A stretch of 24,000 bases of DNA, taken from the NCBI GenBank assembly GCA_000685825.1, contig JMKQ01000006.1; one strand, written 5' to 3'. Below, piece by piece: positions 8,679 through 23,635 of this stretch; positions within the stretch are counted from its first letter, which is position 1, and each line of letters opens with the position of its first letter. This stretch comes from Methylocystis sp. LW5 (GTDB taxonomy: Bacteria > Pseudomonadota > Alphaproteobacteria > Rhizobiales > Beijerinckiaceae). Below the pieces are notes generated by a model. The model had not been told where the DNA came from. It was given only the letters and a program-made list of their open reading frames with translations, and searched no databases. A program made the translations under genes and the position numbers.

Positions 8679-9293
8679 TCACTTCATATCCATGGACTTG
8701 TGATCGTCCTTGTGATCGTGATGGTCGTGATGGTCGTGGTGGTGCTCTTCAGCGCCGCCGGCCGGAGACGTCGTGCCGCCTTCCGGATGTGCCTTTTCCC
8801 ATCGCTGCATCGCCTCGGCGTCATGCGCATGCTTGGCGTCGGGCGCATCGACCGCCGCGTCGACCGTCACTTCACCCGCCTTCTCGAAGACGAGAACGAG
8901 TTCCATGCCCCAGCCGACGGGGTTGATCTTCTTGACCTCGGCGAGCACGACATGCGCGCCTTCGGGCGAGAGCGTCGTCGTCTTATTGGCCGCGATGGCG
9001 ATGCCGCCTTCCGCGATGGTGTGCTTGGCGTCGGCGTGCAAGGTAACCTTGCCGACGTTCGGCGATTTCACCGCAATGAGCTTGTCGGCGCCGCCCTTAT
9101 TGTGGACGAATGCGTAGAAATAGGCAGTGGTCTCGCCGTCCTTGGGCGCGCGCACCCAGGGATGCTCGATCGTCAGCTTGCCGAGCTCATATTCATGAGC
9201 CTGCGCCGCGCGCATCGGAGCCAAAACGCCGCACGCCGCGCCGCCCAATAGAGCGCCGCCAGCCGCCAACAGATCACGCCGCTTGATCATCAT
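8679..9293 (-). CDS. PCuAC (DUF461) periplasmic copper chaperone, His-type variant with His-rich C-terminal tail
   Basis: RBS aagggaga. Tat-like KRRDLL signal with predicted cleavage AQA|HEYELG. The PCuAC fold motif IEHPWVRAP is present. The canonical Met ligands are absent (LHADAKH and HVVLAEV where MxM/HxM are expected). The tail is EEHHHDHHDHHDHKDDHKSMDMK. Confidence 0.85.
   Translation of the reverse strand: MMIKRRDLLAAGGALLGGAACGVLAPMRAAQAHEYELGKLTIEHPWVRAPKDGETTAYFYAFVHNKGGADKLIAVKSPNVGKVTLHADAKHTIAEGGIAIAANKTTTLSPEGAHVVLAEVKKINPVGWGMELVLVFEKAGEVTVDAAVDAPDAKHAHDAEAMQRWEKAHPEGGTTSPAGGAEEHHHDHHDHHDHKDDHKSMDMK
8717..8743 (-). repeat. Three tandem 9-nt units (cgtgatggt, cgtgatggt, cgtggtggt) encoding the His/Asp-rich tail of PCuAC
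   Basis: Read directly from the sequence. In-frame triplet-multiple repeat inside the CDS. Confidence 0.8.
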
Positions 9294-9424: not shown

Positions 9425-11368
9425 TCAGTGCTGATGCGGCGAGACATAGACGATCGGCTCTTTCGCGGTCAGCGTGATCTGCGCCTTCAGCAGCGAGACC
9501 GCGCCGTCGTCGGTCCCGAAATGGCGGAAGCGGGCTCGAACATAGCCGGAGCGATCGATCAGAAAATGACCTTCCGGAATCTCATTGATGACCGGCTCGT
9601 CGAGATAATGATTGATGAGAGAATAAGTGAGCTCTGTGGCGTCCGGATGGCTCGGCGTCAGCGCGCTCGGATCATTCGGGCATTCGCCGAAATAATCGGT
9701 GACATGATGCGCGCCCATCGCCTTCACCGTCTCGGCGGCGACTTTCAGACTCGCGACACGATCGGCGAAATCCGCATCCTCCGGCTTGCACCGCGCGAAG
9801 GAGACGAGCGTCGGCACGCCGCGCAGCTTCTCGAGGTCGTCGATCTCGCCCTTGGGATCGTCCAGCGCGAAATTGGGCGCGACGAGCCAAGGGATGACGC
9901 CCTTCGGACTCAGGAAGCGCGACTGGTTGGAATTCGACAGAACGGTGAGAAAATTGATGAGGTCCCAGCGCTCGTCCTCGGTGACCGCGTCGCCGAAGGC
10001 CGGCATGACGCCGCTTTGTCCGCCATAGGTCAGCCAGTGAAAAATATCGCCGAGCGTATGCGTCGCGACATGCGGCGCGGTGAGATCGGCGGGCGGAACC
10101 TTGAGACCCTTGGCCATGGGTCCATTGCCCTCGCCGGTGACGCCGTGACAGGCGATGCAATTGGCCTGGAAGGTCTCATAGCCGCGCTTCACCGATGCCG
10201 CCGTGTAAGCGATGGGCGGGTCGGTATAGGTCTCGGGATAGGCCTGCACCGACAGTGAGACCGTGCCGCAGACCACCGCCGCCAGCGCCAGCGCCGAGGT
10301 CGAATATTTTCGCCAATCGCGGAGCTGCGGCAAAGGCGTGAGCCCCACGGCCGCGACGAGCGCCGGCCCGAACCAGGCGAGGCCGGCGACGACCGCCAGC
10401 GCCGCTCCGGCGACGCCCCATTGCCAAGTGGGATCGATCCAGGGCGTGACCTTGAGGCCCCATGTGCCGGCCCAAGTCACGCGGAAAGGAAGCGGCCAAT
10501 AGACGTTCGTCTCATGCGCCGCCGGCGTGATGGTGGCGATCCAGCCTGCGATGAACAAAAGGCCGAGCGCGCACGCGCCCTCGATGCCGCCGATCTTGCT
10601 GTACCAGGCGAAATCGAAGCCCTTCTTGGACTCGGCGAGCGTCAGATAGCGCGCGAGCGAGAGAGCGAGCAGCAGCGCTGCGCAGAGCAGAGCCAATTTG
10701 ACTGTGAGCAGTCGTCCGTAGGGCGTCGCCAGCATGAAGCCGAAGCTGCCGACCGTCTCCCATGCCAGGATGAGGCCGCTGATCAGCACGATCAGCATCG
10801 CGCCCTTGGCGATCATCGACCAGCGCTCGGCGAGACGCCAGGCGACCTCCGGCGGCTTTCCGCGGCCGGTGAACATCCAGTAGACGAGGCCGAGCAGGCC
10901 GCCGATCCAGGTGAGGCCCGCCAGTGTGTGGAAGGGGAAGCTCAGCTGCGTGTAGATCGGCAGGCTGTCGTCCACCGCATGGCCAGTGACAGACACGACC
11001 GCGAGCACGGCGAGCCCGAGCCCGAGCGTCGCGCGATCGAGCCAGAGATTGGAGATCCGCAGGCGCACCAGCGTCGCGACAGTGAAGACCGCCGCGAGAA
11101 TCTGCGTCGCCACCCAGGCCTTTCCGATCACCGTGCCGGAAATGAACTGCAGCAGCGCGTCGGCATCGACCGGACGGCCGGCGGGGATGATGGCGCGCGC
11201 CGTCGCCACGATGAGGCCGAAGCCGAACAGCAGGCGCAGGACCGCGGCGCCCGCGATCGCTTTTTTGAAGCGCTCGCCGTCCTCCTCTACGAGGCGCGGC
11301 AGCAGCAATAGTCCGACGGCGAGAGCGGAAAGAACGCTCTCCACGAAGCGAAGCGTCGCCAATTCCAT
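9425..11368 (-). CDS. copD: CopD-family copper-resistance membrane protein fused to a monohaem cytochrome c domain and a degenerate thioredoxin-fold domain (647 aa)
   Basis: Residues 1 to about 370 are polytopic and CopD-like. Residues about 385-478 carry C404-IAC-H408 plus GVMPAF (Met455), a class I cytochrome c pattern. Residues about 490-640 look redoxin-like (APNFALDDPKGEIDDLEKLRGVPTLVSFARC...GHFLIDRSGYV) but have a single Cys instead of CxxC. Confidence 0.85.
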   Translation of the reverse strand: MELATLRFVESVLSALAVGLLLLPRLVEEDGERFKKAIAGAAVLRLLFGFGLIVATARAIIPAGRPVDADALLQFISGTVIGKAWVATQILAAVFTVATLVRLRISNLWLDRATLGLGLAVLAVVSVTGHAVDDSLPIYTQLSFPFHTLAGLTWIGGLLGLVYWMFTGRGKPPEVAWRLAERWSMIAKGAMLIVLISGLILAWETVGSFGFMLATPYGRLLTVKLALLCAALLLALSLARYLTLAESKKGFDFAWYSKIGGIEGACALGLLFIAGWIATITPAAHETNVYWPLPFRVTWAGTWGLKVTPWIDPTWQWGVAGAALAVVAGLAWFGPALVAAVGLTPLPQLRDWRKYSTSALALAAVVCGTVSLSVQAYPETYTDPPIAYTAASVKRGYETFQANCIACHGVTGEGNGPMAKGLKVPPADLTAPHVATHTLGDIFHWLTYGGQSGVMPAFGDAVTEDERWDLINFLTVLSNSNQSRFLSPKGVIPWLVAPNFALDDPKGEIDDLEKLRGVPTLVSFARCKPEDADFADRVASLKVAAETVKAMGAHHVTDYFGECPNDPSALTPSHPDATELTYSLINHYLDEPVINEIPEGHFLIDRSGYVRARFRHFGTDDGAVSLLKAQITLTAKEPIVYVSPHQH

Positions 11369-11459: not shown

Positions 11460-11825
11460 TTAGTGAGCGTCCACCGTGAACTCGTATTTCCCCTCGACGA
11501 TGTGGCCATCCGAGGAGAGAACGCGATATTTCACGACATATTTGCCCGCCGCCAGATCTGGCGCGTCGAGCGTCAGCTCGCGCGGCTTGTCGGGCGCGCC
11601 CTTCGCGCCTTCGACGACGGTCTTGCCATTGGCGTCGAGGATCGCGATCGTCGAATAATTGGGCTCGACGCCGCCGCCGAAGCGCAGCTTCACGAGCTTC
11701 GGCGAAGCGGCGACGTGATCCTTCGCCGACGGAGAAGCGTCGACCAGAAAGGAATGAGCGAAGGCCGCGCCGGCGCTCATGCATAGAAATGCCGCCACGA
11801 GGCCGGCTCCGAACGTCATCTTCAT
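11460..11825 (-). CDS. copC: CopC periplasmic copper-binding protein (121 aa), Cu(II)-site-only type
   Basis: ATG at 11825 is 7 nt after aggagg. Predicted signal cleavage is AFA|HSFLVDASP, giving an N-terminal His. It has the SSDGH motif and no Met-rich Cu(I) loop. Confidence 0.9.
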   Translation of the reverse strand: MKMTFGAGLVAAFLCMSAGAAFAHSFLVDASPSAKDHVAASPKLVKLRFGGGVEPNYSTIAILDANGKTVVEGAKGAPDKPRELTLDAPDLAAGKYVVKYRVLSSDGHIVEGKYEFTVDAH

Positions 11826-11901
11826 CGTCGCTCCTCCTATATTATTTGCTTTTCGTATCATGATCTGGTCGGTCGGCCGCATCCGTTCAAGACGGTCGCG
11901 T

Positions 11902-12516
11902 TCACGACGACTTCAGCGCATCAGCAGGATCGGCAGCCTTCGGCTTGGTGTGGCTATGGCGCCAATAAGCGCCGACCATCAGCGCGATCAGCACGACGCC
12001 GAGCGCCTGCGGCACGAAGGACCACAGCGTCTGGCCGACCATGAATTTGAACTGCTGGGTCTCTTTCTCGCCATTCGCTCGGGTGAGCGTCACATAGCCG
12101 ATGAAATGACCCTTTTCGGTGAATTTGTGCTCGAAATTGAAGGTGCCGGTCCTGTAGAGCTTCGGCGGCAGATGAATGATGGTGAGCGGCTCGAGATCCG
12201 TATTGGCCGAGATCGGCGTCAGCGGATCGCGAATGATGCGCAGCTCGAGCGGCAGATCGCGAAAATCCGGATTGGCGATATCGAAAGTGAAGATGATCCG
12301 GCCGACGATCGGAATATGGTCGCAATATTGATCGCGTGCGCCTTCGGCCTCATAGGCCGTGATGTGGATCATGTCATAGCCGAACATGACCATGCACATA
12401 TTGTCCATGACCATCGCTTCCGGTCCGTCGCCGCCGGCGCGAGCCGGAGTAGCGGCAAAGGACGCGAAGAACAGCGCAAGCGCCAATAGACACGGTCTCA
12501 CGGATCGGACGATCAT
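11902..12516 (-). CDS. pmoD: PmoD, cupredoxin-like copper protein of the extended pmo operon (204 aa)
   Basis: RBS gggaggaagga. It has a signal peptide, the MCMVMFGYDMIH segment (C41, M42, M44, M49, H51), C65 and a C-terminal TM helix. Its position directly downstream of pmoCAB and upstream of copCD matches the described alphaproteobacterial arrangement. Confidence 0.9.
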   Translation of the reverse strand: MIVRSVRPCLLALALFFASFAATPARAGGDGPEAMVMDNMCMVMFGYDMIHITAYEAEGARDQYCDHIPIVGRIIFTFDIANPDFRDLPLELRIIRDPLTPISANTDLEPLTIIHLPPKLYRTGTFNFEHKFTEKGHFIGYVTLTRANGEKETQQFKFMVGQTLWSFVPQALGVVLIALMVGAYWRHSHTKPKAADPADALKSS

Positions 12517-12907: not shown

Positions 12908-14203
12908 TCAGGGCATGTCGCCGGCGACGAACTTCGGAATGACCGGGCCGCCGATTTCGGTGGCGTAGCGCTTGCCCGACGGGCCGAAGAAGAACAGCAG
13001 ACCGCCGATCTGGCTGTCCGTGTCATAGGCGAGGTCGGAGAGACGCTCGATGTCCCAACGCGCGTCCTGCACCTTGATCTCGATCGTCTTCGTCTCACCC
13101 GGCGCGATCGGCGTCGGATCCGTCGACAGACCACGGTCCGCCAGCAGATAGTCGGGGAACTCCGGCTTCGTCGTGAACACGTCGGGGTTCAGGAAGCGGA
13201 GACCCGCCGCCGTATACTCGCCGAGCTTCAGCGGCTCATCCGTCTTGTTCGTGATCTTCACCTGAACCGTCAGCTCGCGGCCCGGCACCTTGTAGACGCC
13301 GCCCTTGAGATCCGCCGTCACGATCTTCGTGCCGACGCCCACAGTGCCTTCCTCGGTGATCGGCGTCAGCGGCTTCTGCAAGCCGGCCTGAAGCGGGATC
13401 GTGCGCGGGAAGGTGCTGTTGGTGACAGCGTAGCCGATGATCGTCGCCAGGATCGTCACCGCCAGAACGATAGCGCCGACGCGACGGTCGTCGTCACCGA
13501 TCTGCTCGTCTTCCTTGCCCTCGCTGACGCGCAGGTAGGAGGCGATGATGCCCTTCTTGAAGAACCAGTAGAGGATCCAGGCCGCAGCCGCGATCATCCA
13601 CGGGAAGTGCCAGGCATAGATGCGGTCGATGCCGTAGGTCTCGAGGTCCACGGTCGTGCCGTCCAGCAGCGTGACCGGGTCCTTGAAGTCGGCCATGTCG
13701 CCCTTGATCTCGATCCACTGGCCGGGTCCGATGATCGGGCCGCCGCCTTCGACGTTGATCTGCGCATGAACGTGCCAACGGCCCGCGCGGCGCGCCTTCA
13801 GGTCGATCTGGAACGCATAGTCCTTGCCGACCTCGAGCGAGACCGAACGCGGAGCGAACTGCTCGCCGATGAACTGAGCCGTGCGAACCAGAACCGGACC
13901 CGGCTCGCCGGCGTTCAGGAACGACGACTTCGGGTTCGCGACGGCCTGCGGCCAAGCCGAGAACACGTGCACCTTGCCCGAAAGCACCATCGACTCGTTG
14001 ACGTTCAGCGAGGTCTTCGACCACTTCACGTCATACCAGTTCAGCGTGCGCATGCGCAGGAACGCCTGCTGCGACTTCTCGCCATGCGCCGACGCCGGAG
14101 CGACGGAGCCCATCGTCGCGGCGACCGCAGCCGCCATGCCCAGGCCGAAGAGCCGAGCGACGCGTCCCGTCGCCAGCACGGCCATTCTCTCCAACAGTTT
14201 CAT
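12908..14203 (-). CDS. pmoB: Particulate methane monooxygenase subunit B (431 aa)
   Basis: ATG at 14203 follows gggagg. The signal peptide ends ASA|HGEKSQQAFLRMRTLNWYDV. The RWHVHAQ His pair is present, with two TM helices and a C-terminal cupredoxin domain. It is near-identical in pattern to type II methanotroph PmoB. Confidence 0.97.
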   Translation of the reverse strand: MKLLERMAVLATGRVARLFGLGMAAAVAATMGSVAPASAHGEKSQQAFLRMRTLNWYDVKWSKTSLNVNESMVLSGKVHVFSAWPQAVANPKSSFLNAGEPGPVLVRTAQFIGEQFAPRSVSLEVGKDYAFQIDLKARRAGRWHVHAQINVEGGGPIIGPGQWIEIKGDMADFKDPVTLLDGTTVDLETYGIDRIYAWHFPWMIAAAAWILYWFFKKGIIASYLRVSEGKEDEQIGDDDRRVGAIVLAVTILATIIGYAVTNSTFPRTIPLQAGLQKPLTPITEEGTVGVGTKIVTADLKGGVYKVPGRELTVQVKITNKTDEPLKLGEYTAAGLRFLNPDVFTTKPEFPDYLLADRGLSTDPTPIAPGETKTIEIKVQDARWDIERLSDLAYDTDSQIGGLLFFFGPSGKRYATEIGGPVIPKFVAGDMP

Positions 14204-14366
14204 GGAACAACCTCCCAAGTTTCTCTTCGCGGACCGGCCCGTCGGGCCGGATGTCCGCTGTCGTCCTTGCCGGAGCGGCTCGCTCCCGGGCTCTCTTGCA
14301 GGAGCCCTTCGCAGCCGCCCCTCCTCGCTTTGAGCGATCGCTCGATCCGTCCAGCCTTACGGCCGA

Positions 14367-15125
14367 TCAGATCTTGGTGATCACCTTCGTGGTGGAGTAC
14401 CACTTACCGACGAACCACCACAGGAAGTAGACGAGCATCGACACGAAGCCCGAGAAGAACGCGGCCACCGGCACGACGTCCTTACCGAAGGTGCGCAGCG
14501 TGCCGCGCTCGACCATGCGGATGTATTCCGGCATCGAGGTGCGGACGAAGTGGAGGCCGATCAGATCAGCCAGGGACATCAGCTGACCATGCTGCTCGGT
14601 CGCCTGATGGAAGGCGGCGATCGCCGGCCAGTTGTTCGGGTAGAACAGCAGACCCCAGCCCAGGGCGCCGACCACAGCCGTGATCACATAGGAGCCCGAC
14701 AGCAGCAGGATGATGTCCAGCCACAGGGCCGGAACGACCAGAGCCGACGGGAACACCAGGCTGATCGGGAAGTAGGTCCAGCCCCAGAAGTTCACATAGC
14801 GGTTGATCCACTCGCCGATGAGCAGACCCAGAACCGCGAAGGTCGCGCCGAACGGGAGACGGAAGTTCTCCCACAGGAACGCCTGAGCGGCGGCCGCGAA
14901 GGTCACGCCCAGGATCGGGATGACGGTCGGCCACATACGACGGTCTTTCCAGTCGACCCAGAAGTCCCAGTCGCCAGCCGTCAGCATGAAGTGAATATGA
15001 TAGCCGCCCAGCACTGCCAGAAACAGCAGCGTCAGAATCAGCCAATCGGAGGTCTTAACGCATCCCGCCGCTTCCGCGACAGAATGGAAAGGCCCGATTG
15101 CCCCCCCGCTCTTCGATGTAGACAT
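14367..15125 (-). CDS. pmoA: Particulate methane monooxygenase subunit A (252 aa)
   Basis: ATG at 15125 follows aaggaga. MSTSKSGGAIGPFHSVAEAAGCVKTSDW...GDWDFWVDWKDRRMWPTV...HFVRTSMPEYIRMVERGTLRTFGK is the classic PmoA sequence. Confidence 0.97.
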   Translation of the reverse strand: MSTSKSGGAIGPFHSVAEAAGCVKTSDWLILTLLFLAVLGGYHIHFMLTAGDWDFWVDWKDRRMWPTVIPILGVTFAAAAQAFLWENFRLPFGATFAVLGLLIGEWINRYVNFWGWTYFPISLVFPSALVVPALWLDIILLLSGSYVITAVVGALGWGLLFYPNNWPAIAAFHQATEQHGQLMSLADLIGLHFVRTSMPEYIRMVERGTLRTFGKDVVPVAAFFSGFVSMLVYFLWWFVGKWYSTTKVITKI

Positions 15126-15376
15126 CACTCTTCTCCTTGGTGTCTGTCCGCCCGGCGTCTTCGCGCCGGCGTCTCGAGACCTGCCTCCGGCTCTCTCGCG
15201 CCGGATTGTCCTTTGGAATTCGCCCCGCCGATCTCCCGCCGATCCCTCTCCGAAACCCCGTCCGAACCGCCGCCGCGCGGCCGTCCGGACGAAGCCTCGT
15301 TCCGGGAGCATTCGGAAAAATTCGCCGGAGGCGGCCGTCCGCGACACTGCGCGGGCGGCCGATATTCAGGCCGCTA

Positions 15377-16147
15377 TCAGCCGATCAGCGCCGCAACGCC
15401 GTCCTTGCCGAGCAGGCGCTTCACGCCAGCCAGGATCTGCAGGACGACGCCGAACACGCCCAGAGCCATCCAGCCGAAGAACACGAAGCCCCAATGCAGC
15501 GGAGCGACGAACAGCTCTTCCATGAACCAGAAGGTGTGGCCCCACTCGTTCAGGCCGACGTTCGGGATGATCATGAACGGGCCGATGGCCACGATCAGGA
15601 ACGCCAGCGAATAGCCGTGCGCGAAGAACGGAATGCGGGTCTTGGCGTAGAAGAACGAGCCCACGCCCATGATCGAGTAGATCGGGTAGCTGAGATAGAA
15701 CTCGATGATGTGCGACGGGGTGAAGTCCGTGTCGCGAATCACGGTCATGTGCCAGGTGCCGTCCTGCTCCGTGAAGAAGCTGGCGCCCCAGTAGATGGCC
15801 ACCGAGTAGACCGTCAGCCACTGCAGCAGCACGACGTGACGACGAAGCTCCTCACGCGGAGAAACCGCGTCGACATTGCGGTCGCGGGTCTTCCACAGAT
15901 AGCCGGCGAGGCCGAGACCGGCGACGAGCTCCAGCGGAATCTCCGTCCACAGCATCGTCAGCCAATACGTCTGGAACTCCGGAGCGAACGAGTCGAGACC
16001 CGCGCGCCAGCCGAAGATCTGCTCATAGATACGGATGAACAGGTAGAAAATGTTGAGGACGGCGATGCCGATCCACATGGTCTTCAGGTCCACGATGGCA
16101 TCTGAGCCGGCGGCTGCGCCGGCCGATGTCTCTGTCGTTACGCTCAT
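15377..16147 (-). CDS. pmoC: Particulate methane monooxygenase subunit C (256 aa)
   Basis: ATG at 16147 follows aggagg. FTEQDGTWHMTVIRDTDFTPSHIIEFY carries the conserved Asp/His/His metal site. The protein is polytopic. Confidence 0.97.
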   Translation of the reverse strand: MSVTTETSAGAAAGSDAIVDLKTMWIGIAVLNIFYLFIRIYEQIFGWRAGLDSFAPEFQTYWLTMLWTEIPLELVAGLGLAGYLWKTRDRNVDAVSPREELRRHVVLLQWLTVYSVAIYWGASFFTEQDGTWHMTVIRDTDFTPSHIIEFYLSYPIYSIMGVGSFFYAKTRIPFFAHGYSLAFLIVAIGPFMIIPNVGLNEWGHTFWFMEELFVAPLHWGFVFFGWMALGVFGVVLQILAGVKRLLGKDGVAALIG

Positions 16148-16475
16148 CTCAATTCCTCCTAAGTGCTCCCAGGGATTCTCGAAGCGTTTTCGCCGCGTCC
16201 CGCCTCCCTGCTCGGCACGCGCCTTCGTCTCCAACGGTTGATTGTCGTCGCTGCGGCCTCGTGCTCGACGAGCCGCTGTCCCGACCTCCCGCTCTCACCG
16301 CCCAGCGACCCCTCTCAAAAGGACCCGCCGACGGCATTTTTCTTCTTTGCTCGGAGACGAATTTTCTCGAAACCGCCGCGCGAAACGAAAGCCCCAGACC
16401 CCCCGGCGCCTCCCAGCGCCAAAACATCCAAAACGCCCTCGTTCGGCGAGCCGCAACCATTTCCGTTCCGCCTCG

Positions 16476-16735: not shown

Positions 16736-18214
16736 TCAGCGGGCGGCTCTCGCCGGCTCCGGAACCACAGTATCCAACGCATTGCGCAGGTCTGCGGCGC
16801 CCTTGTCGCGCGCGGTGAGCGGCTCCAATCCGAAGCGCGTCTCGATCGTCGCCAGAATCGACGCGGTGTCATAGGTCGTGTGGTCGACGAATCCCTTTTT
16901 CGCGAAGGGCGATAGGATCAGCGTGGGCACGCGCGTTCCGGGGCCGAAGCGGTCGATTTGCGGCGGCGAGACATGATCCCAGGCGCCGCCGTTCTCGTCG
17001 GCGGTGACGATGACCAGCATGTCGTTCCAATTGGGGCTGCGCCGCAGCCGCGCGACAACATCGGCGAGATGCGCGTCGCCGGTCTTCAGATCGGCGTAAT
17101 TGGGATGCTCGTTGAATTTGCCGACCGGCTTGTAGAAGGACACGGCGGGCAGCGTCCCCGCCTCAGCCGCCGCGAAGAAATCCTCGGCGTCCTTCAGATG
17201 CTGCTCGCGCGCCGGCGTTCCGGGTCCGAAATTGGCGAAATAGACGAAAGGCTGGTGATGCGTCTGGAAATATTCCGGCGCCTCGCGCTGACGGATTCGT
17301 CCAGCCCGCATATCGTTCCAGCCGCCTGCGTACCACGCCCATGAGACGCCCTTTTCGGAGAGGCGATCGCCGATCGTCGGCTGCGTTTGCGGCGGCAGGC
17401 CGACGCCAGACGGCGCTTCGAGCGGCGAGAGCGGGGTCGGCGGCTGCATCGTGCTGACCACGAAGCCGTCACTGGTCACCGGCCCGGACTTTTTGTAGCG
17501 CGGCGGGCCGATACGAGCGCTCTTCGGCGAGTCGGCGGCGCGGGCGAGCAGGCCGGTGGCCTCGTCGACCTCGGCGATCAGCGACGGCGGCGCCGATGGA
17601 AAGGTCGGCGCGCAGGCGCAGACGAGGAACATGTGATTGACGAAGGAGCCGCCGAAGAAGCCGTGGAAGAAATGATCGGCGAGCGTGAACTCCTGCGCGA
17701 GGCGCCATTGCGCGAGCGAGCGGCCGTCGTAATAGCCCATCACCAAGCCGCCGGCGCCGGAAATGGCCGCGAAGCGATCCATCTTCCCGCCGTCGATCTG
17801 CTCCTTCTCCTGGAAGAAATCATGCGTCAGATCGGGCGTCTTCTCCGCATTGGGCAAAAATGCGTCGATCGCGAAAGGCGCATTGGGAAGAATGGCGGGA
17901 AAGCGGGCGTCGACGCCCTTATCGCCGCGGATCGGCGGCAATTCGCCGAAAGGCTTGCCGTCGATATCGACCTGGGCGAAGCGATCCGCGCCTATGCCGA
18001 GCCCATCGGCGCCGGGATAGAGGCCGAAGACATTATCGAAGCTGCGGTTTTCCGTGTAGATCACGACGATATGGCCGATGGCGGCGAAAGGGTTCCGCGC
18101 CTCCGCCAGCGCGGGGCCGACGAGGCCGCAGAGGAGCGGCAAGACCGACGCTCCGGCAAAAACGCGCGATCGGGTCGAAATTCGAGCGTGTGTCCAAATT
18201 GGTGAGAGATCCAT
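16736..18214 (-). CDS. Secreted phosphoesterase of the acid phosphatase AcpA / phospholipase C family (492 aa)
   Basis: Internal ATG at 18214 follows tggag. It has a signal peptide and the GHIVVIYTENRSFDNVFG motif typical of the phosphoesterase (PLC/AcpA) family, plus the C-terminal DENGGAWDHV motif. Confidence 0.8.
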   Translation of the reverse strand: MDLSPIWTHARISTRSRVFAGASVLPLLCGLVGPALAEARNPFAAIGHIVVIYTENRSFDNVFGLYPGADGLGIGADRFAQVDIDGKPFGELPPIRGDKGVDARFPAILPNAPFAIDAFLPNAEKTPDLTHDFFQEKEQIDGGKMDRFAAISGAGGLVMGYYDGRSLAQWRLAQEFTLADHFFHGFFGGSFVNHMFLVCACAPTFPSAPPSLIAEVDEATGLLARAADSPKSARIGPPRYKKSGPVTSDGFVVSTMQPPTPLSPLEAPSGVGLPPQTQPTIGDRLSEKGVSWAWYAGGWNDMRAGRIRQREAPEYFQTHHQPFVYFANFGPGTPAREQHLKDAEDFFAAAEAGTLPAVSFYKPVGKFNEHPNYADLKTGDAHLADVVARLRRSPNWNDMLVIVTADENGGAWDHVSPPQIDRFGPGTRVPTLILSPFAKKGFVDHTTYDTASILATIETRFGLEPLTARDKGAADLRNALDTVVPEPARAAR

Positions 18215-18341
18215 GGCGCGGCTCCAGTCGCAATAGCCTCGCCATAGGCGAGATGGGCGAAGGTAGAATGTCGCGAGCCATAGAAAAAGCCTCCGCGCAG
18301 TGATGCGCGGAGGCTCTGGTATCGTTGGCGCGAAAAGCGGC

Positions 18342-19406
18342 TCAGTGAGCGTGCTTGCCGGCGAGCTCCTGCTGCGGCTGAGGCGTCGCATTGGTGCGCC
18401 CCGGCAGGACCGGATATTCGACCTTGGGCTGATCGCCGGTCAGCGCGCCGAGGAAGGCGACGATGGCCGTGGTCTCGTCGGGCGCGAGCTCGACGCCGAG
18501 CTGCGACTTCGCCATGACATTGACCGCCTCCTCCAGCGTCCACACCTGGCCGGTGTGGAAGTAGGGAGCGCGCAGCGCGACATTGCGCAGCGGCGCGACG
18601 CGGAAGGAGAAGACGTCAGCCGGGCTCTTGGTGACGTTGAAACGGCCCTTGTCCGCTTCCGGCAGAATGGCCGCCGCCGGCTTCGCCACGGCGCCGAACT
18701 GCGTGTAATTGCCGCCGCCGACGTTCACGCCGTCGTGGCAGCCGCTACACCCCTTGTCCATGAAGAGGCGCAGGCCCTTCTTCTGCGTCGCGTCCAGCGC
18801 CGCCTCGTCGCCGCCGAGGAATTTGTCGAGGCGCGAGCCCGGCGTCACCAGCGTCGATTCGAAAGCCTCGATCGCCTTGGCGAAATTGTCGAAGTTGGCG
18901 GCCTTATTGTCGCCGGGGAAGGCCTTCTGGAAGGAAGCGACATAGCCCGGAATGCTGTTCAGCGTCGCCTCGACATTGGCGGGCGTATTGTTCATCTCCA
19001 CGCCGGCCTGCACCGGACCCTTGGCCTGGGCCTTCAGATCCTCGGCGCGGCCGTCCCAGAACTGGGCGACGTTGAACACGGCGTTGAGCACGGTCGGCGC
19101 GCGGCGCGGGCCTTTCTGCCAGCCGTGGCCGATAGAGGTCGAGCCGGCGTCGACGCCGCCGAGGCTCAGATTATGGCACGAGTTGCAGCTGATGAGCTGG
19201 CTCGAGGAGATGCGCGGATCGAAGAACAGCTGCTTGCCGAGCTCGATCTTGGCGGGTGTGAGGTCGTTGTTCTTCACGGCCTTGGCGGCGGCCGCCGGGG
19301 TGATCGGCTTGAAGACGGCGTTGGCGTCGCTCCGCAGATCGCCCGCGATAGCGGCGAACGGGAACAGCGCCATCACGCTCAGCGTGGCGATGAATGCACG
19401 TGACAT
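18342..19406 (-). CDS. ccpA: Di-haem cytochrome c peroxidase, canonical bacterial CcpA type (354 aa)
   Basis: ATG at 19406 follows ggaggag. It has a signal peptide, two CxxCH motifs (CNSCH, CSGCH), FWDGRA, and APYFHTGQVWTLEEAVNVMAKSQLG with the Met expected to ligate the high-potential haem. Confidence 0.9.
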   Translation of the reverse strand: MSRAFIATLSVMALFPFAAIAGDLRSDANAVFKPITPAAAAKAVKNNDLTPAKIELGKQLFFDPRISSSQLISCNSCHNLSLGGVDAGSTSIGHGWQKGPRRAPTVLNAVFNVAQFWDGRAEDLKAQAKGPVQAGVEMNNTPANVEATLNSIPGYVASFQKAFPGDNKAANFDNFAKAIEAFESTLVTPGSRLDKFLGGDEAALDATQKKGLRLFMDKGCSGCHDGVNVGGGNYTQFGAVAKPAAAILPEADKGRFNVTKSPADVFSFRVAPLRNVALRAPYFHTGQVWTLEEAVNVMAKSQLGVELAPDETTAIVAFLGALTGDQPKVEYPVLPGRTNATPQPQQELAGKHAH

Positions 19407-19570
19407 TTTCCGAGGGCTCCTCCGATTGGGAAACGAGCGTGCGCTGCGAAACAGCCTCGGCCCGAACCGCCGCCCGCCTACCACAAGCTGGGCTCTCGGG
19501 CAAAGGCAATAATGCAGGAAATTGCGAGAAATCATGTAATTGCAACTATAACTCTACTATTTTCTCGATT

Positions 19571-19588
19571 ATGTCGCTTTGGCGACAT
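19571..19588. promoter_or_regulatory. Palindrome ATGTCGC-TTTG-GCGACAT in the divergent ccpA / MauG-like intergenic region
   Basis: Read directly. Perfect 7-bp arms next to the most AT-rich stretch of the spacer (19511-19570). Function unknown. Confidence 0.25.
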
Positions 19589-19802
19589 CGTCTCCGTCGC
19601 AGTTATTGTTCTCGTCCCCGAACGCGGAAATATTTTTGCGCTGCACAGCTGCAGTTGCTGGCCGAGGCAAAGACAAAAGCCCGCCCCGAGCCATGAGAAG
19701 CCTTGCCGATCAGAAAAATTCCAGGCAGGATCATGGCCGTCGCGCCGATGAGAGAAGCGGGTCCATCCGACAGGGCGCGACGAAGACCTCGGGGAGGAAG
19801 AC

Positions 19803-20957
19803 ATGGCCGTGCGCAAGCGCGCCGCGACACTGCTCGCGGCAATGCTCAGTCTTTCGGGGCTTGGTTTCGCGAGCGTCGGTTTCGCCGAGCCGCTGGGCCT
19901 GCCCCCAGTCCCGATCCCACAGGACAATCCGCAGACCAGCGACAAGATCGCGCTCGGCAATCGTCTGTTCCACGATCTACGCTTTTCGTCCGACGGCACG
20001 GTCGCCTGCGCGACCTGTCACAAGGACGACCACGCCTTCACCGACAGCCCGTTGCGCACCTCCGAGGGGATTCGCGCCTCCGACGGAATCAGCAAGAAGA
20101 CCGGCACGCGCAATGCGCCGACGGTCATCAACTCCGCCTATTTCACGACGCTGTTCTGGGACGGACGCTCCGCCTCGCTCGAGGATCAGTCGCAGCATCC
20201 CTTCCTCAATCCTGTCGAGATGGGCCTGGCCACGCATGAGCCGATCCTCGCCATAGCGCGCTCCGATCCCTTTTATGTCGTGCTCTTCAAGAAGGCCTTC
20301 GGCAAGACCGGCGACGGCGTGACGATGGAGGAGGTGAAGAAGGCCATCGCCGCCTATGAGCGCACGATTATTTCCGGCGATTCGCCCTTCGACCGCTGGC
20401 GCTTCGGCAATGAGGAGAATGCGATATCGGAGGCCGCCAAGCGCGGCTTCGAGGTCTTCGTCGGCCAGGGGCGCTGCGTCTCCTGCCATGTGATCGAGCA
20501 GAATCAGGCGCTGTTCACCGATAATCGCTTCCACAATATCGGCGTCGGCATCAATCGCGCGCAATTCGACGTGCCTCGTCTCTCGGCGGAATTTCTGACC
20601 GCCAAGGCGAAAGGCGCGGACGTCGACAAGGCCGTGCTCACCGACCCCAAGACGTCCGAGCTCGGCCGTTTCGCCGTCACCGATCAGTTCGATGTGATCG
20701 GGGCCTTCAAGACGCCGACTCTACGCAATGTCGCAGTGACAGCGCCCTATATGCACGACGGCTCGCTGAAAACTCTGAAGGATGTCGTCAAGCACTATAA
20801 TAATGGCGGGCGCAGCGAGGGAGATCCGGCGCAGGTGAACGACTATCTCTCCGGCGGCATTCGCCCTCTGAATCTCACCGAGCAGCAGATGGACGATCTC
20901 GTCGCCTTCATGGAAACGCTCACCACGCCGGCCTATTTCGGCGCCAAAACGAGATGA
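19803..20957 (+). CDS. Di-haem cytochrome c peroxidase-family protein, MauG-like (384 aa)
   Basis: RBS ggaggaag. It has a signal peptide, CATCH and CVSCH haem motifs and FWDGRS. APYMHDGSLKTLKDVVKHYNNGG places Tyr exactly where the neighbouring CcpA has its Met ligand. Confidence 0.85.
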   Translation: MAVRKRAATLLAAMLSLSGLGFASVGFAEPLGLPPVPIPQDNPQTSDKIALGNRLFHDLRFSSDGTVACATCHKDDHAFTDSPLRTSEGIRASDGISKKTGTRNAPTVINSAYFTTLFWDGRSASLEDQSQHPFLNPVEMGLATHEPILAIARSDPFYVVLFKKAFGKTGDGVTMEEVKKAIAAYERTIISGDSPFDRWRFGNEENAISEAAKRGFEVFVGQGRCVSCHVIEQNQALFTDNRFHNIGVGINRAQFDVPRLSAEFLTAKAKGADVDKAVLTDPKTSELGRFAVTDQFDVIGAFKTPTLRNVAVTAPYMHDGSLKTLKDVVKHYNNGGRSEGDPAQVNDYLSGGIRPLNLTEQQMDDLVAFMETLTTPAYFGAKTR

Positions 20958-20997
20958 GCGCGCCGCGCCACGCGGTCACGATAAGGGAACCGAGCAG

Positions 20998-22071
20998 ATG
21001 AGCGAATTCATCACCAGGCGCAGCGTGCTGGCGGGAGCCGGCGCCAGCGCGGCGCTGACCACTCTGCCGATCAGCATGGTCACGCTCGCCTTCGGCGGCA
21101 CGCGCGAGGATTTCACCTTCACCTATATTTCCGACGCGCATATTCAGCAGATCAAAGGCGCGAGCTTCGTGCGCAATTGGGATCAGGGGCTGAAGCGCGC
21201 CGTCGCCGAGGCCAATCTGGTGAAGCCGGAATCCGATTTCGTCATCTTCGGCGGCGATCTCGCCCAGCTCGGCAAGCGCGAGGAGCTCGACCACGGCGCC
21301 GAGATTCTCTCCAAGCTGAAAGGCAAGCTGCACGCCGTCATGGGCGAGCATGATTATTATCTCGACCTCGGCGATTATTGGAGCAAGCTCTACGGTCCGC
21401 ATTATTACAGCTTCGACCATAAGGGCGTGCATTTCATCGTGCTGAACTCGATTTTGACCAGCGAGCAATGGACCTTCCATCGCTGGCCGACGGCCGAGCA
21501 GCGCATGCTGGAGATGGCGGGGCTCGACAATCCCAATGGCTCGCCCTTCATGGTCGGCGACAAGCAGCGCAAATGGCTCGCCAATGATCTCGCCAAGCTG
21601 GACAAGAAGACGCCGCTCGTCGTCTTCTCCCATTCGCCGCTGCAGAAGATCTACAAGGGCTGGAACTTTTGGACCGACGACGCCGAGGAGGTGCAGGCGC
21701 TGCTCGCGCCCTTCGACAGCGTCAACGTCATCTACGGCCATGTTCACCAGATTCAGTACAATCAGATCGGCAACATCAGCTTCAATTCGGTGATGGCCAC
21801 CGCTTGGCCCTGGCCCTATCCGCAGAGCTATGCGCAAGCCGAGAGCCATCTGCCCGTGCTCACCATTCCGATGAACCGCGCCGATCCTTTCTTCGAGCGC
21901 GACGCCACCGGCTGGCAGCTGATCGACATAGGCTCGGGCCGCGTCACCGCGCGCTATCAGCTCTGGGACAATGACCAGCGCACCGTCGCCTTCGATCACA
22001 AGGCCGGCCACCCGGTCGATATCGCCTATCAGGAGCCGACGCAGCACCGTCTGCCGCAAACCCATTATTGA
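20998..22071 (+). CDS. Tat-exported calcineurin-like metallophosphoesterase (357 aa)
   Basis: Twin-arginine signal ITRRSVLAGAGA. MPE motifs are SDAH, GGDL, GEHD (Glu where GNHD normally has Asn), FSHSP and YGHVH. It starts 40 nt after the MauG-like gene. Confidence 0.85.
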   Translation: MSEFITRRSVLAGAGASAALTTLPISMVTLAFGGTREDFTFTYISDAHIQQIKGASFVRNWDQGLKRAVAEANLVKPESDFVIFGGDLAQLGKREELDHGAEILSKLKGKLHAVMGEHDYYLDLGDYWSKLYGPHYYSFDHKGVHFIVLNSILTSEQWTFHRWPTAEQRMLEMAGLDNPNGSPFMVGDKQRKWLANDLAKLDKKTPLVVFSHSPLQKIYKGWNFWTDDAEEVQALLAPFDSVNVIYGHVHQIQYNQIGNISFNSVMATAWPWPYPQSYAQAESHLPVLTIPMNRADPFFERDATGWQLIDIGSGRVTARYQLWDNDQRTVAFDHKAGHPVDIAYQEPTQHRLPQTHY

Positions 22072-22083
22072 TCGGAGTTCGCC

Positions 22084-22485
22084 ATGCTTCGCTCGACCTT
22101 GCTTCTCGCTTTCGGTCTCGCCGCCTTCGGCGCGACGACAGCGCGCGCCGATGAATTCACCAAGACAGATGTCGAGCGCTATCAGAAGGAGTTCGAGCAG
22201 GTGGCGGCCAAGGGCCGCGAATTATGGACGAGCGGCGCGCTCGGGACCAATGGCGTCGCCTGCGCGCAATGCCATCCCAACGCCGCCAACACGCACCCAG
22301 AGACCTATCCCAAATTCCAGAAGCAGCTCGGCAAGGTGACGCAGCTCTTCGAGATGGTGAATTGGTGCATTCGCAATCCGCTGCAGGGAGCCAATCTTCC
22401 GCCGGACGATCCGCGCATGACGGCGCTCGTCTCCTACATCACTTTCGAGCGGCGCGGCGTGAAGCTCGCGCCCGGCCAGCATTGA
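22084..22485 (+). CDS. Periplasmic monohaem c-type cytochrome (133 aa), possibly SoxA/TsdA-like
   Basis: It has a signal peptide, a single CAQCH, and a downstream ...LFEMVNWCIRNPLQGANLPPDDPRMTALVSYI segment that resembles the SoxA-type cytochrome pattern from memory. It starts 12 nt after the MPE stop; RBS cggag. Confidence 0.75.
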   Translation: MLRSTLLLAFGLAAFGATTARADEFTKTDVERYQKEFEQVAAKGRELWTSGALGTNGVACAQCHPNAANTHPETYPKFQKQLGKVTQLFEMVNWCIRNPLQGANLPPDDPRMTALVSYITFERRGVKLAPGQH

Positions 22486-22496
22486 GGACAGGCGCC

Positions 22497-22754
22497 ATGC
22501 GGAAATCCTTTGCTCTCGCCCTGCCCGCTTTGCTGATCGCCGGCTCGGCCTTGGCCGCCGCGGGCGACCAGCCAGCCGATGCGCAGAACCTCACGGGCGC
22601 CTCCGCCCCGGCTCAGGCGGCGGCCGCGCCCTCCCCTTGCGCAGGCTGCGCGGGTCACGATTGCGCCAATTGTCCGATGGCCCTGGCCGCCGCCGTGCAG
22701 GCGGCGACCGGAACGGCGCAACCGCCAGCCCCGATCCGCTGCAACGTCGACTGA
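22497..22754 (+). CDS. Secreted Cys-rich mini-protein (85 aa), no family recognised
   Basis: ATG is 11 nt after the cytochrome stop, with gagga upstream. Sec-type signal MRKSFALALPALLIAGSALAAAG. The mature part is rich in Ala, Pro and Gln, with C-AG-C-AGHD-C-AN-C-PM and a fifth Cys 4 residues from the C-terminus. Confidence 0.55.
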   Translation: MRKSFALALPALLIAGSALAAAGDQPADAQNLTGASAPAQAAAAPSPCAGCAGHDCANCPMALAAAVQAATGTAQPPAPIRCNVD

Positions 22755-22850
22755 TACGAGTTCGGCAGAAGGTTCGGGGCGTTCCCCCTGCGAGCGGGGG
22801 GAAGGAAAGCGGCCAACGCCGCGCAAACCGATCAGATCGTATGAGTCGGG

Positions 22851-23251: not shown

Positions 23252-23635
23252 TCAACCGATGAAGTCCTGCACCACATCGCCCAGAATGCGGTTCACATCG
23301 TCGATGGTGGAGACGTCGTAGCGCGTGGTTTTCTCGCCGGTCGCCTCGTCGTCGCGTTCGAATTTCGGATGGCCGAAGCGGATCGAGGTTCCCTCGATCT
23401 CGAAGGGCAGCGGCAGCGGCTCCTTCAGCGGGCGCGAGACGAAGAGCAGGCCCATCACCTTCTGCTCGACGGCGCTCGCCTTCAGCGCCAGCTCGACGCC
23501 GAATTTCGGCCCGATATCCTTTTTGATCGACTCGTCGAGGAAGGCGATCCAGCGGAAGAAACTGTCGAAATTGCGCCGCGCGGCGGCGAGCACCTGTTCT
23601 TCCGCCTTGGCGAGGCTCGCGCTCGGATCGCTCAT
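23252..23635 (-). CDS. Hypothetical cytoplasmic protein (127 aa)
   Basis: Clean ORF with non-repetitive composition, 67 nt downstream of panE on the same strand. No family recognised. Confidence 0.55.
   Translation of the reverse strand: MSDPSASLAKAEEQVLAAARRNFDSFFRWIAFLDESIKKDIGPKFGVELALKASAVEQKVMGLLFVSRPLKEPLPLPFEIEGTSIRFGHPKFERDDEATGEKTTRYDVSTIDDVNRILGDVVQDFIG

Follow-up and report, generated by a model that had tools for sequence, protein, structure and literature searches.

Within the 24,000-nucleotide stretch of Methylocystis sp. LW5 DNA studied here (contig JMKQ01000006.1; hereafter the window), four co-directional genes at positions 19803-22754 of the plus strand comprise a three-gene cassette that is conserved across about 11 phyla and one lineage-specific gene. 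The conserved genes, which we call G1, G2 and G3 and together the triad, encode a di-haem enzyme of the MauG type, a Tat-exported protein of the metallophosphoesterase (MPE) fold and a small cytochrome c; the fourth gene, G4, encodes a Cys-rich mini-protein. From its motifs and genomic contexts, the cassette looks like a system for peroxide-linked electron transfer, and not a phosphatase or copper system. Our preferred reading, held tentatively and somewhat short of an even chance, is that G2 and G3 would form a periplasmic MPE-cytochrome oxidoreductase whose electrons reach H2O2 through G1. The substrate of the cassette is probably sulfur-related.

Composition and conservation of the gene set

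An open reading frame (ORF) check reproduced the layout given in the initial annotation, namely four genes in one direction with gaps of 40, 12 and 11 nt and four exported products, the Sec signals of G1, G3 and G4 being read directly from the sequence and that of G2 being of the Tat type. The GC content at third codon positions (GC3) of these genes is 0.79-0.83 in the assigned frames, supporting that they are coding, and the start of G4 is preceded by a ribosome-binding site (GAGGA, 9 nt 5' of the ATG). The four genes are:

19803-20957, plus strand: G1, 384 aa, Sec-exported MauG/MbnH-like di-haem enzyme
20998-22071, plus strand: G2, 357 aa, Tat-exported binuclear MPE-fold protein
22084-22485, plus strand: G3, 133 aa, Sec-exported mono-haem SoxA/TsdA-type cytochrome c
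22497-22754, plus strand: G4, 85 aa, Sec-exported Cys-rich mini-protein, its ATG lying inside the listed ORF 22224-22754

Conservation figures rest on 80 triad loci that we fetched (L-numbers denote fetched loci). Wherever the contig reaches far enough, G1, G2 and G3 occur in this order in all 80, with median gaps of 37 nt (G1-G2) and 16 nt (G2-G3) and often with 4-nt overlaps. The loci belong to Methylocystaceae, Steroidobacteraceae, Methylococcaceae and Methylophilaceae, and further to Acidobacteriota, Latescibacterota, Eisenbacteria, Hydrogenedentota, Methylomirabilota, Gemmatimonadales, Planctomycetota, Bdellovibrionales, Myxococcales and Krumholzibacteriia. Identities between phyla are 56-69% for G1, 70-74% for G2 and 56-74% for G3. 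Chance alone could not plausibly account for this arrangement. In a genome scan, at least 497 species genomes proved to carry relatives of G2. When the ORFs flanking the 80 triads were clustered, no further family apart from regulators recurred outside Methylocystaceae. The fetched locus L005, from Methylosinus sporium, matches the window at 98%.

The proposal that all four genes form one unit held in part: all four are real, but the conserved unit is G1-G2-G3. G4 was found beside the triad only in the Methylosinus lineage (L005, L007, L008, L009 and L018), and we rejected it as an integral component because it is confined there to one lineage and stands alone elsewhere. Its product carries the motif C48-x-G-C51-x-G-H54-D55-C56-A-x-C59-P60, has a Cys three residues before the C-terminus (ending IRCNVD) and gave no Pfam or NCBIfam match. 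In most triad loci nothing occupies the fourth position. A periplasmic rhodanese bearing a signal peptide and keeping the active-site loop C-x-x-G-x-R follows G3 after 3 nt in eight loci, from Steroidobacteraceae and one other lineage. L048 has a Bcp peroxiredoxin at this place and L069 a DoxX protein, each a single case.

Stand-alone relatives of G4 (L095-L109; e.g., L095:3974-4243 and L097:3579-3833) lie on bog metagenome contigs with no triad near. They carry the GCAGCAGHDCANCP motif and a Cys close to the C-terminus (endings APCK and ATPCK), and several sit between secE-nusG-rplK-rplA and genes for NAD kinase or isocitrate dehydrogenase (icd). These proteins make up an unannotated family of small exported proteins.

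The three core proteins and their relatives

G1 matches the CCP_MauG family (PF03150, 4.7e-54) and carries the haem motifs C69xxC72H73 and C225xxC228H229, both of which are invariant among 80 homologues, as is Trp119 (80 sequences). The initial annotation had assigned it a Tyr-ligated haem of the MauG kind, and the alignment agrees with this: Tyr332 aligns to Tyr294 of MauG, is invariant in the 80 homologues and is predicted to ligate the six-coordinate haem axially. The best-scoring models are those of MbnH (TIGR04039, 262.4 bits) and MauG (TIGR03791, 220.6 bits), each under its cut-off (362.85 and 443.85, respectively). The best PDB match, over the full length, is 6e1c, deposited as 'Di-heme enzyme', which we take to be MbnH. 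Canonical cytochrome c peroxidases (CCPs) align to residues 1-229 only, and we rejected G1 as one of them because Tyr replaces the Met of their His/Met-ligated electron-transfer haem. The C-terminus of G1 is variable among triad loci. G1 shares with the enzymes of the MauG/pre-methylamine dehydrogenase/amicyanin and MbnH/MbnP systems the CCP_MauG fold with two haems and, by prediction, a six-coordinate haem ligated by His and Tyr; as in the triad, the genes of these enzymes stand directly beside that of a periplasmic partner protein, and the cluster also encodes a small one-electron carrier. G1 differs in falling below both equivalog cut-offs and in having an MPE-fold partner; as first noted from the window, the known partners are missing, with no mauA/mauB or MbnP neighbours in the window or the 80 loci. 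The carrier is also distinct from that of the MauG system, being a cytochrome with predicted His/Cys ligation and not a cupredoxin.

G2 matches PF00149 (2.1e-11; 45 bits against a gathering threshold of 21.5). Its N-terminus reads T-R-R-S-V-L, and the TAT_signal match is below the Pfam threshold in the window copy; the RR pair is invariant among G2 homologues, on many of which PF10518 is recorded. The motifs D46-x-H48, G86-D87-x-x-Q90, G116-E117-H118-D119, H212 and G247-H248-x-H250 keep all metal-ligand positions, with motif III reading GEHD instead of GNHD/E. The Glu concerned, E117, aligns to Asn80 of GpdQ, is invariant in the triad clade and is at least 90% conserved across three MPE clades. 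G2 has no Cys, 10 invariant Trp and a clade-specific N60-W61-D62 insertion. Among 82 sequences, 48% of the alignment columns are at least 97% identical, and the C-terminus (window 22068-22071) is Q-x-H-[Y/F] in 81.

The closest solved relatives of G2, at 13-16% identity, are GpdQ, Rv0805 and purple acid phosphatases; GpdQ is matched by the G2 profile in the PDB (6.8e-14) and is the best Foldseek match of the G2 model (E 1.9e-8). The class III phosphodiesterases GpdQ, Rv0805 and CpdA and the purple acid phosphatases share with G2 the fold, the C-terminal beta-domain and alignable metal ligands. They differ from it in that G2 has Glu for Asn in motif III, GDxxQ as motif II and Tat export, is obligately paired with a cytochrome and has relatives fused to redox domains. 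Public annotations name G2 CpdA, Icc or metallophosphoesterase, and its score against the CpdA equivalog (NF008359) is 35.2 bits with a cut-off of 225. The description of G2 as SoxB-like did not survive: there is no match to the SoxB/5'-nucleotidase family, the protein is of the GpdQ/Rv0805 kind, and we rejected membership in SoxB on sequence type, C-terminal domain and the lack of adjacent soxYZ. A binuclear MPE site and Tat export are the traits that G2 does share with SoxB.

G3 matches the SoxA/TsdA cytochrome domain (PF21342, 2.3e-13; 50.4 bits against a gathering threshold of 27) and also aligns to the haem-1 domain of TsdA; against the SoxA equivalog (TIGR04484) it scores 43.8 bits with a cut-off of 110. 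Its haem motif is C60xxC63H64. Cys95, within N-W-C, stands opposite Cys114 of SoxA (haem-1 domain of 1h31), is invariant in 78 sequences and is the predicted distal thiolate ligand of the haem. The protein is a single domain of 133 aa without the second haem domain of TsdA, and no SoxX-like gene was found in the 80 loci or the window. Its last residue (window 22480-22485) is His in 78 of 78 sequences. The strict conservation of the C-termini of G2 and G3 suggests a function for their last residues, whether as ligands of a metal or haem or as part of an interface.

Relatives of the MPE were sought among 1.84 billion cluster representatives, which yielded the tight family and more distant relatives. 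Several of the remote ones keep the Tat signal and P-G-E-H-D and are fused to electron-transfer domains:

P0212: fusion to a type-1 Cu cupredoxin, an architecture present in all 120 best homologues
P0214: fusion to a CuA/COX2 domain
P0222: fusion to a Rieske domain
P0254: fusion to a CxxCH cytochrome domain

Such fusions of GEHD-type MPEs suggest that the MPE itself is redox-coupled. 

The Tat-exported MPE-cupredoxin fusions form a large family in Gemmatimonadales and others, and two of them (L086:5117-8293 and L087:5534-8290) adjoin genes for a divergent extracytoplasmic function (ECF) sigma factor and a zf-HC2 anti-sigma factor.

A sister clade, the third of the MPE clades compared, is 37-41% identical to G2 and includes Mesorhizobium. 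It keeps the pairing of an MPE with a SoxA-like cytochrome, in which the Cys of N-W-C is retained and the C-terminus is G-K-Y, and a cupredoxin-like/CarboxypepD_reg protein is encoded ahead of this pair. SoxYZ genes lie within 6 kb in four of the seven sister-clade loci, where the pair is followed by SoxY, SoxZ, in places a cytochrome c, and flavocytochrome c sulfide dehydrogenase (FCSD) (L090:1-7688, L110:6646-11244, L111:6145-11179 and L112:2396-8720); the C-terminus of this SoxY is NGC[K/E/L], not GGCGG. In L088, L089 and L091 the pair stands beside a divergent cbb3-type oxidase operon. The cbb3 loci (L088:5194-13146 and L091:6001-13623) encode CcoN, a CcoO fused to two more cytochrome c domains, DsbD_2, a P-type ATPase and a divergent SCO1, with CcoN and CcoO joined in L091 into one product of 1047 aa. 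A partial 'cytochrome 579' match in the CcoO fusion was judged to be a match to the haem motif. Invariant across the three MPE clades are the metal ligands and Q90, E96, D123, W222, D228 and Q251. What stays constant is the MPE together with its cytochrome (predicted to be thiolate-ligated) or with a fused carrier of one electron; what varies is the enzyme that reduces the terminal oxidant, such as a cbb3 oxidase, suggesting that G1 takes this latter place in the triad.

Directly upstream of G1 and on the same strand, at least 15 loci from at least seven non-proteobacterial phyla carry a gene of the FUR family. When these proteins were compared with reference sequences, all 15 had Asp at the position of Asp104 in Bacillus subtilis PerR and kept the equivalents of His37, Asp85, His91 and His93, the one exception being a Glu in place of Asp85 in L059. 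In Leptospira, a periplasmic di-haem Ccp is controlled by PerR, a peroxide-sensing repressor of the FUR family; this enzyme differs from G1 in having no Tyr ligand and no MPE or SoxA-like partners (PMC7567364).

In Steroidobacteraceae and relatives, ORFs with only a LysR helix-turn-helix (HTH) domain and no effector domain lie directly upstream of G1 on the same strand (L049, L057, L062, L064, L067, L070 and L082). They are about 104-170 aa as called (e.g., L062:4354-4686; roughly 110 aa in Steroidobacteraceae), the one in L070 being incomplete, and could not be typed as OxyR. The initial annotation had passed over the candidate PerR-type regulators, the change from GNHD to GEHD and the conservation across phyla.

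Proposed role and rival explanations

In the mechanism that we tentatively prefer, G2 would be the substrate-converting subunit of a periplasmic oxidoreductase, with a metal site that carries an extra carboxylate (GEHD) and would be assembled in the cytoplasm before Tat export. These two features fit a tightly bound, redox-competent Fe/Mn pair; a His-to-Glu change turns the beta-lactamase fold into a flavodiiron site, a parallel that serves for the GEHD of G2 as analogy only. G3 would act as the one-electron partner of G2 and hand its electrons to G1, which would spend them on H2O2, giving a 'reductant:H2O2 oxidoreductase' that may be peroxide-induced through PerR-type repressors in many phyla. 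The likeliest reductant would be reduced inorganic or thiol-bound sulfur (sulfite, thiosulfate or persulfide). A sulfur compound is the leading candidate because of the family of G3, the rhodanese genes and, in the sister clade, the neighbouring SoxYZ and FCSD genes, and the optional thiol proteins (G4 in Methylosinus, rhodanese in Steroidobacteraceae) may be sulfur carriers or donors. In architecture, the arrangement is like that of sulfite dehydrogenase SorAB and of SoxCD, where a Tat-exported catalytic subunit and a small Sec-exported cytochrome c feed a terminal oxidase and where, as for the MPEs, fused and unfused electron-carrier variants exist. This likeness would be a functional analogy and not homology, since SorAB and SoxCD have a molybdenum cofactor domain in place of the binuclear MPE fold.

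A wider proposal, which we regard as rather doubtful, is that the GEHD-type MPEs could constitute an unrecognised class of periplasmic redox enzymes and not hydrolases. Their binuclear Fe/Mn site would, with no need of molybdenum, oxidise either a sulfur oxyanion or sulfur bound to a thiol. The electrons would go to a cytochrome with a thiolate ligand or, in the fused forms, to the cupredoxin, CuA, Rieske or haem domain. A MauG-type enzyme capable of the bis-Fe(IV) state would, in the triad, couple this chemistry to H2O2 and so form a PerR-controlled sink for peroxide in more than 10 phyla. If so, the MPE superfamily would gain an electron-transfer-coupled branch, much as the beta-lactamase fold was reused in flavodiiron proteins, and MauG-type enzymes would have, next to the tryptophan tryptophylquinone (TTQ) and MbnP systems, a third type of partner. 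In the periplasm, sulfur chemistry would also be tied to defence against peroxide, and this in the 497 or more species genomes (those of methanotrophs, Acidobacteriota, Gemmatimonadota and Latescibacterota among them) in which G2 is annotated only as 'CpdA/Icc'. The sister-clade operon of MPE, SoxA-like cytochrome, SoxYZ and FCSD would then be a non-canonical Sox variant, which matters when the potential for sulfur oxidation is read from genomes. Three results hold whatever the mechanism: the triad is a unit, the mini-protein lies outside it, and the adjacency of the triad to the pMMO and copper genes is lineage-specific.

Several points weigh against the peroxide-linked reading. A His/Tyr haem of the MauG type normally marks protein-oxidising enzymes and not peroxide-scavenging CCPs. 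Both His118 and Asp119 of G2 are intact, which would be compatible with a role as a hydrolase, and the AlphaFold2 models of G2 (pLDDT 63 and 67, with an unreliable C-terminal third) bear on the assignment of the fold and not on active-site geometry. The best matches of the upstream FUR-family proteins divide about equally between PerR and Bacillus-type Fur and are all below curated cut-offs; their typing as PerR rests in part on the reference sequences used and on the rule that PerR has Asp104 where Fur has Glu. No regulator is adjacent to the triad in the window or in other Methylocystaceae. None of the 80 triads has SoxYZ or FCSD within 6 kb, so that a link of the triad to sulfur rests on homology, the family of G3 and the rhodanese of one family. 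Finally, the initial annotation knew of no characterised system with this gene set, and we too found no published description of the cassette, either in full-text literature searches or in the BthA superfamily-network paper (PMC6405878), a Methylosinus phosphate paper, the YkuE Sec-Tat paper or the Leptospira PerR paper.

The main rival, unlikely as we judge it, assigns G1 a role in maturation: using H2O2, or O2 and electrons from G3, it would oxidise Trp or Tyr residues of G2, G3 or G4 and so install a cofactor or metal ligand, with G3 later exchanging electrons with the mature enzyme in the way amicyanin does with methylamine dehydrogenase. In favour of this, G1 has the Tyr ligand of MauG, and its best-scoring models are those of MbnH and MauG. 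Characterised His/Tyr enzymes with known targets (MauG and MbnH) are encoded beside their protein substrates, and G2 always follows G1 in like manner; the 10 invariant Trp of G2, its N60-W61-D62 insertion and its invariant C-terminal His-Tyr/Phe also speak for this role. Set against this, the sister MPE clades have the same invariant core and no MauG-like gene nearby, indicating that the MPE fold does not generally need maturation of this kind, and a transient maturase would normally be less conserved than G1 is. The initial annotation had named the MPE or the mini-protein as the protein modified by G1. This idea is weakened for the MPE by the sister clades, and G4, being absent from most triads, cannot be a general substrate of G1.

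Quite unlikely, in our estimate, is a carrier-based analogue of the Sox system. Here G3 would couple thiosulfate or sulfite to a carrier thiol (G4, the rhodanese or a SoxY from another locus), G2 would hydrolyse the resulting sulfonate as SoxB does, and G1 would be a SoxX-like acceptor passing electrons to H2O2. The family and Cys ligand of G3, the full hydrolytic motif set and Tat export of G2 and the sister-clade pair standing exactly beside SoxY-SoxZ all speak for it, as do the Cys near the flexible C-terminus of G4 (IRCNVD; TPCK in the stand-alone relatives) and the rhodanese with an intact active-site loop in eight loci. The Sox system and TsdA indeed share with the triad a SoxA/TsdA-type domain, in G3 with predicted His/Cys ligation, and Sox has a Tat-exported binuclear protein of the MPE superfamily and thiol proteins, comparable to the optional fourth genes here. 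However, G2 is not SoxB-like and is nearest to GpdQ, Rv0805 and purple acid phosphatases; G3 has a single haem without SoxX; most triads have no carrier gene nearby; Sox has no counterpart of the MauG-like enzyme; and the redox-domain fusions of GEHD-type MPEs make little sense for a pure hydrolase. The Sox-like logic put forward in the initial annotation gains real support from the cytochrome, the rhodanese and the sister-clade context but not from the MPE.

An improbable third alternative makes G2 a detoxifying reductase, in which a di-iron or di-manganese site would reduce or dismutate H2O2, superoxide, organic peroxides or NO with electrons from G3, G1 being a second peroxide reductase. 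Such a reductase would have a parallel in rubrerythrin or in the flavodiiron proteins, which are built on a hydrolase fold. The extra carboxylate ligand speaks for this reading, and the fused domains are of the electron-donor type found in periplasmic reductases. Candidate PerR-type regulators upstream in other phyla, the ECF sigma/anti-sigma pair beside cupredoxin-fused relatives and the neighbouring Bcp and canonical CCP genes are also in keeping with a detoxifying role. It leaves unexplained, however, the SoxYZ/FCSD context of the sister clade, the sulfur-type cytochrome with its predicted His/Cys ligation, the rhodanese, and why a MauG-type enzyme and not a canonical CCP joins the pair.

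Neighbouring genes and the pmo locus

On the minus strand, the window carries the following genes beside the cassette:

18342..19535, minus strand: canonical bacterial CCP (PF03150, 2.1e-55), divergent from G1
16736-18391, minus strand: AcpA/Burkholderia-type acid phosphatase (TIGR03397, 535 bits, above cut-off), between pmoC and the CCP gene
15377-16234, 14367-15347 and 12908-14218, minus strand: pmoCAB
11902-12516, minus strand: ORF of 204 aa with no Pfam match, at the position expected for pmoD
11460-11882, minus strand: CopC
9425-11368, minus strand: CopD-cytochrome c fusion
8679-9293, minus strand: PCuAC

As had been stated, G1 lies about 3.6 kb from the pmo locus (pmoC starts at 16234 on the minus strand, a distance of 3.57 kb). 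That G2 is an ordinary phosphate-scavenging enzyme or cyclic-nucleotide phosphodiesterase beside unrelated cytochromes, or that the cassette is an accessory of copper handling or pMMO, is very improbable and largely refuted by synteny: the CpdA or Icc names in the source annotations and the nearby AcpA-type phosphatase, pmoCAB, copC, copD and PCuAC genes, which recur in Methylocystaceae, are outweighed by the strict linkage of the triad in phyla without pmo genes or a phosphatase neighbour, by the CpdA score of 35 against 225 bits and by the redox-domain fusions of GEHD-type MPEs. A scan of the whole window for Pho boxes (CTGTCAT-N4-CTGTCAT, up to 3 mismatches) gave no matches, which goes against a conventional phosphatase under Pho control, and copper-binding motifs are absent from all three core proteins. 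The copper or redox link that the initial annotation had thought plausible from position is, as far as copper and pMMO are concerned, unsupported beyond synteny confined to Methylocystaceae. We rejected it as a general property because the triad is kept in phyla without pmo genes; the adjacency is lineage-specific synteny only.

The acid phosphatase gene is syntenic in many Methylocystis/Methylosinus loci, and the divergent canonical CCP gene is present in nearly all triad loci of Methylocystaceae and absent from other loci. This CCP has Met where G1 has Tyr ('AVNVMAKSQLG' opposite 'VVKHYNNGG' of G1), and it is in the window a gene separate from the triad, which sets the cassette apart from PerR-regulated CCP systems. 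Two non-coding features border the operon:

19536..19802: intergenic region between the divergent canonical CCP gene (minus strand) and G1, presumed to be the promoter region of the operon
22782..22803, plus strand: GC-rich hairpin 3' of G4, UUCCCCCUG-CGAG-CGGGGGGAA, a possible transcript end without a U tract

In the intergenic region we found no sigma-70-like site, and the plus-strand scan for promoters and intrinsic terminators gave nothing above shuffle expectation; no consistent FNR/FixK-like box was found across 39 upstream regions of G1 from Methylocystaceae. The plus-strand terminator scan did not call the hairpin, and the region after G4 folds, yet is unexceptional overall (z = -0.78). 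Further downstream, an ORF on the minus strand (23252-23635; 127 aa, GC3 0.87, no Pfam or NCBIfam match) is kept after the operon in the Methylosinus loci L006-L009, L092 and L093.

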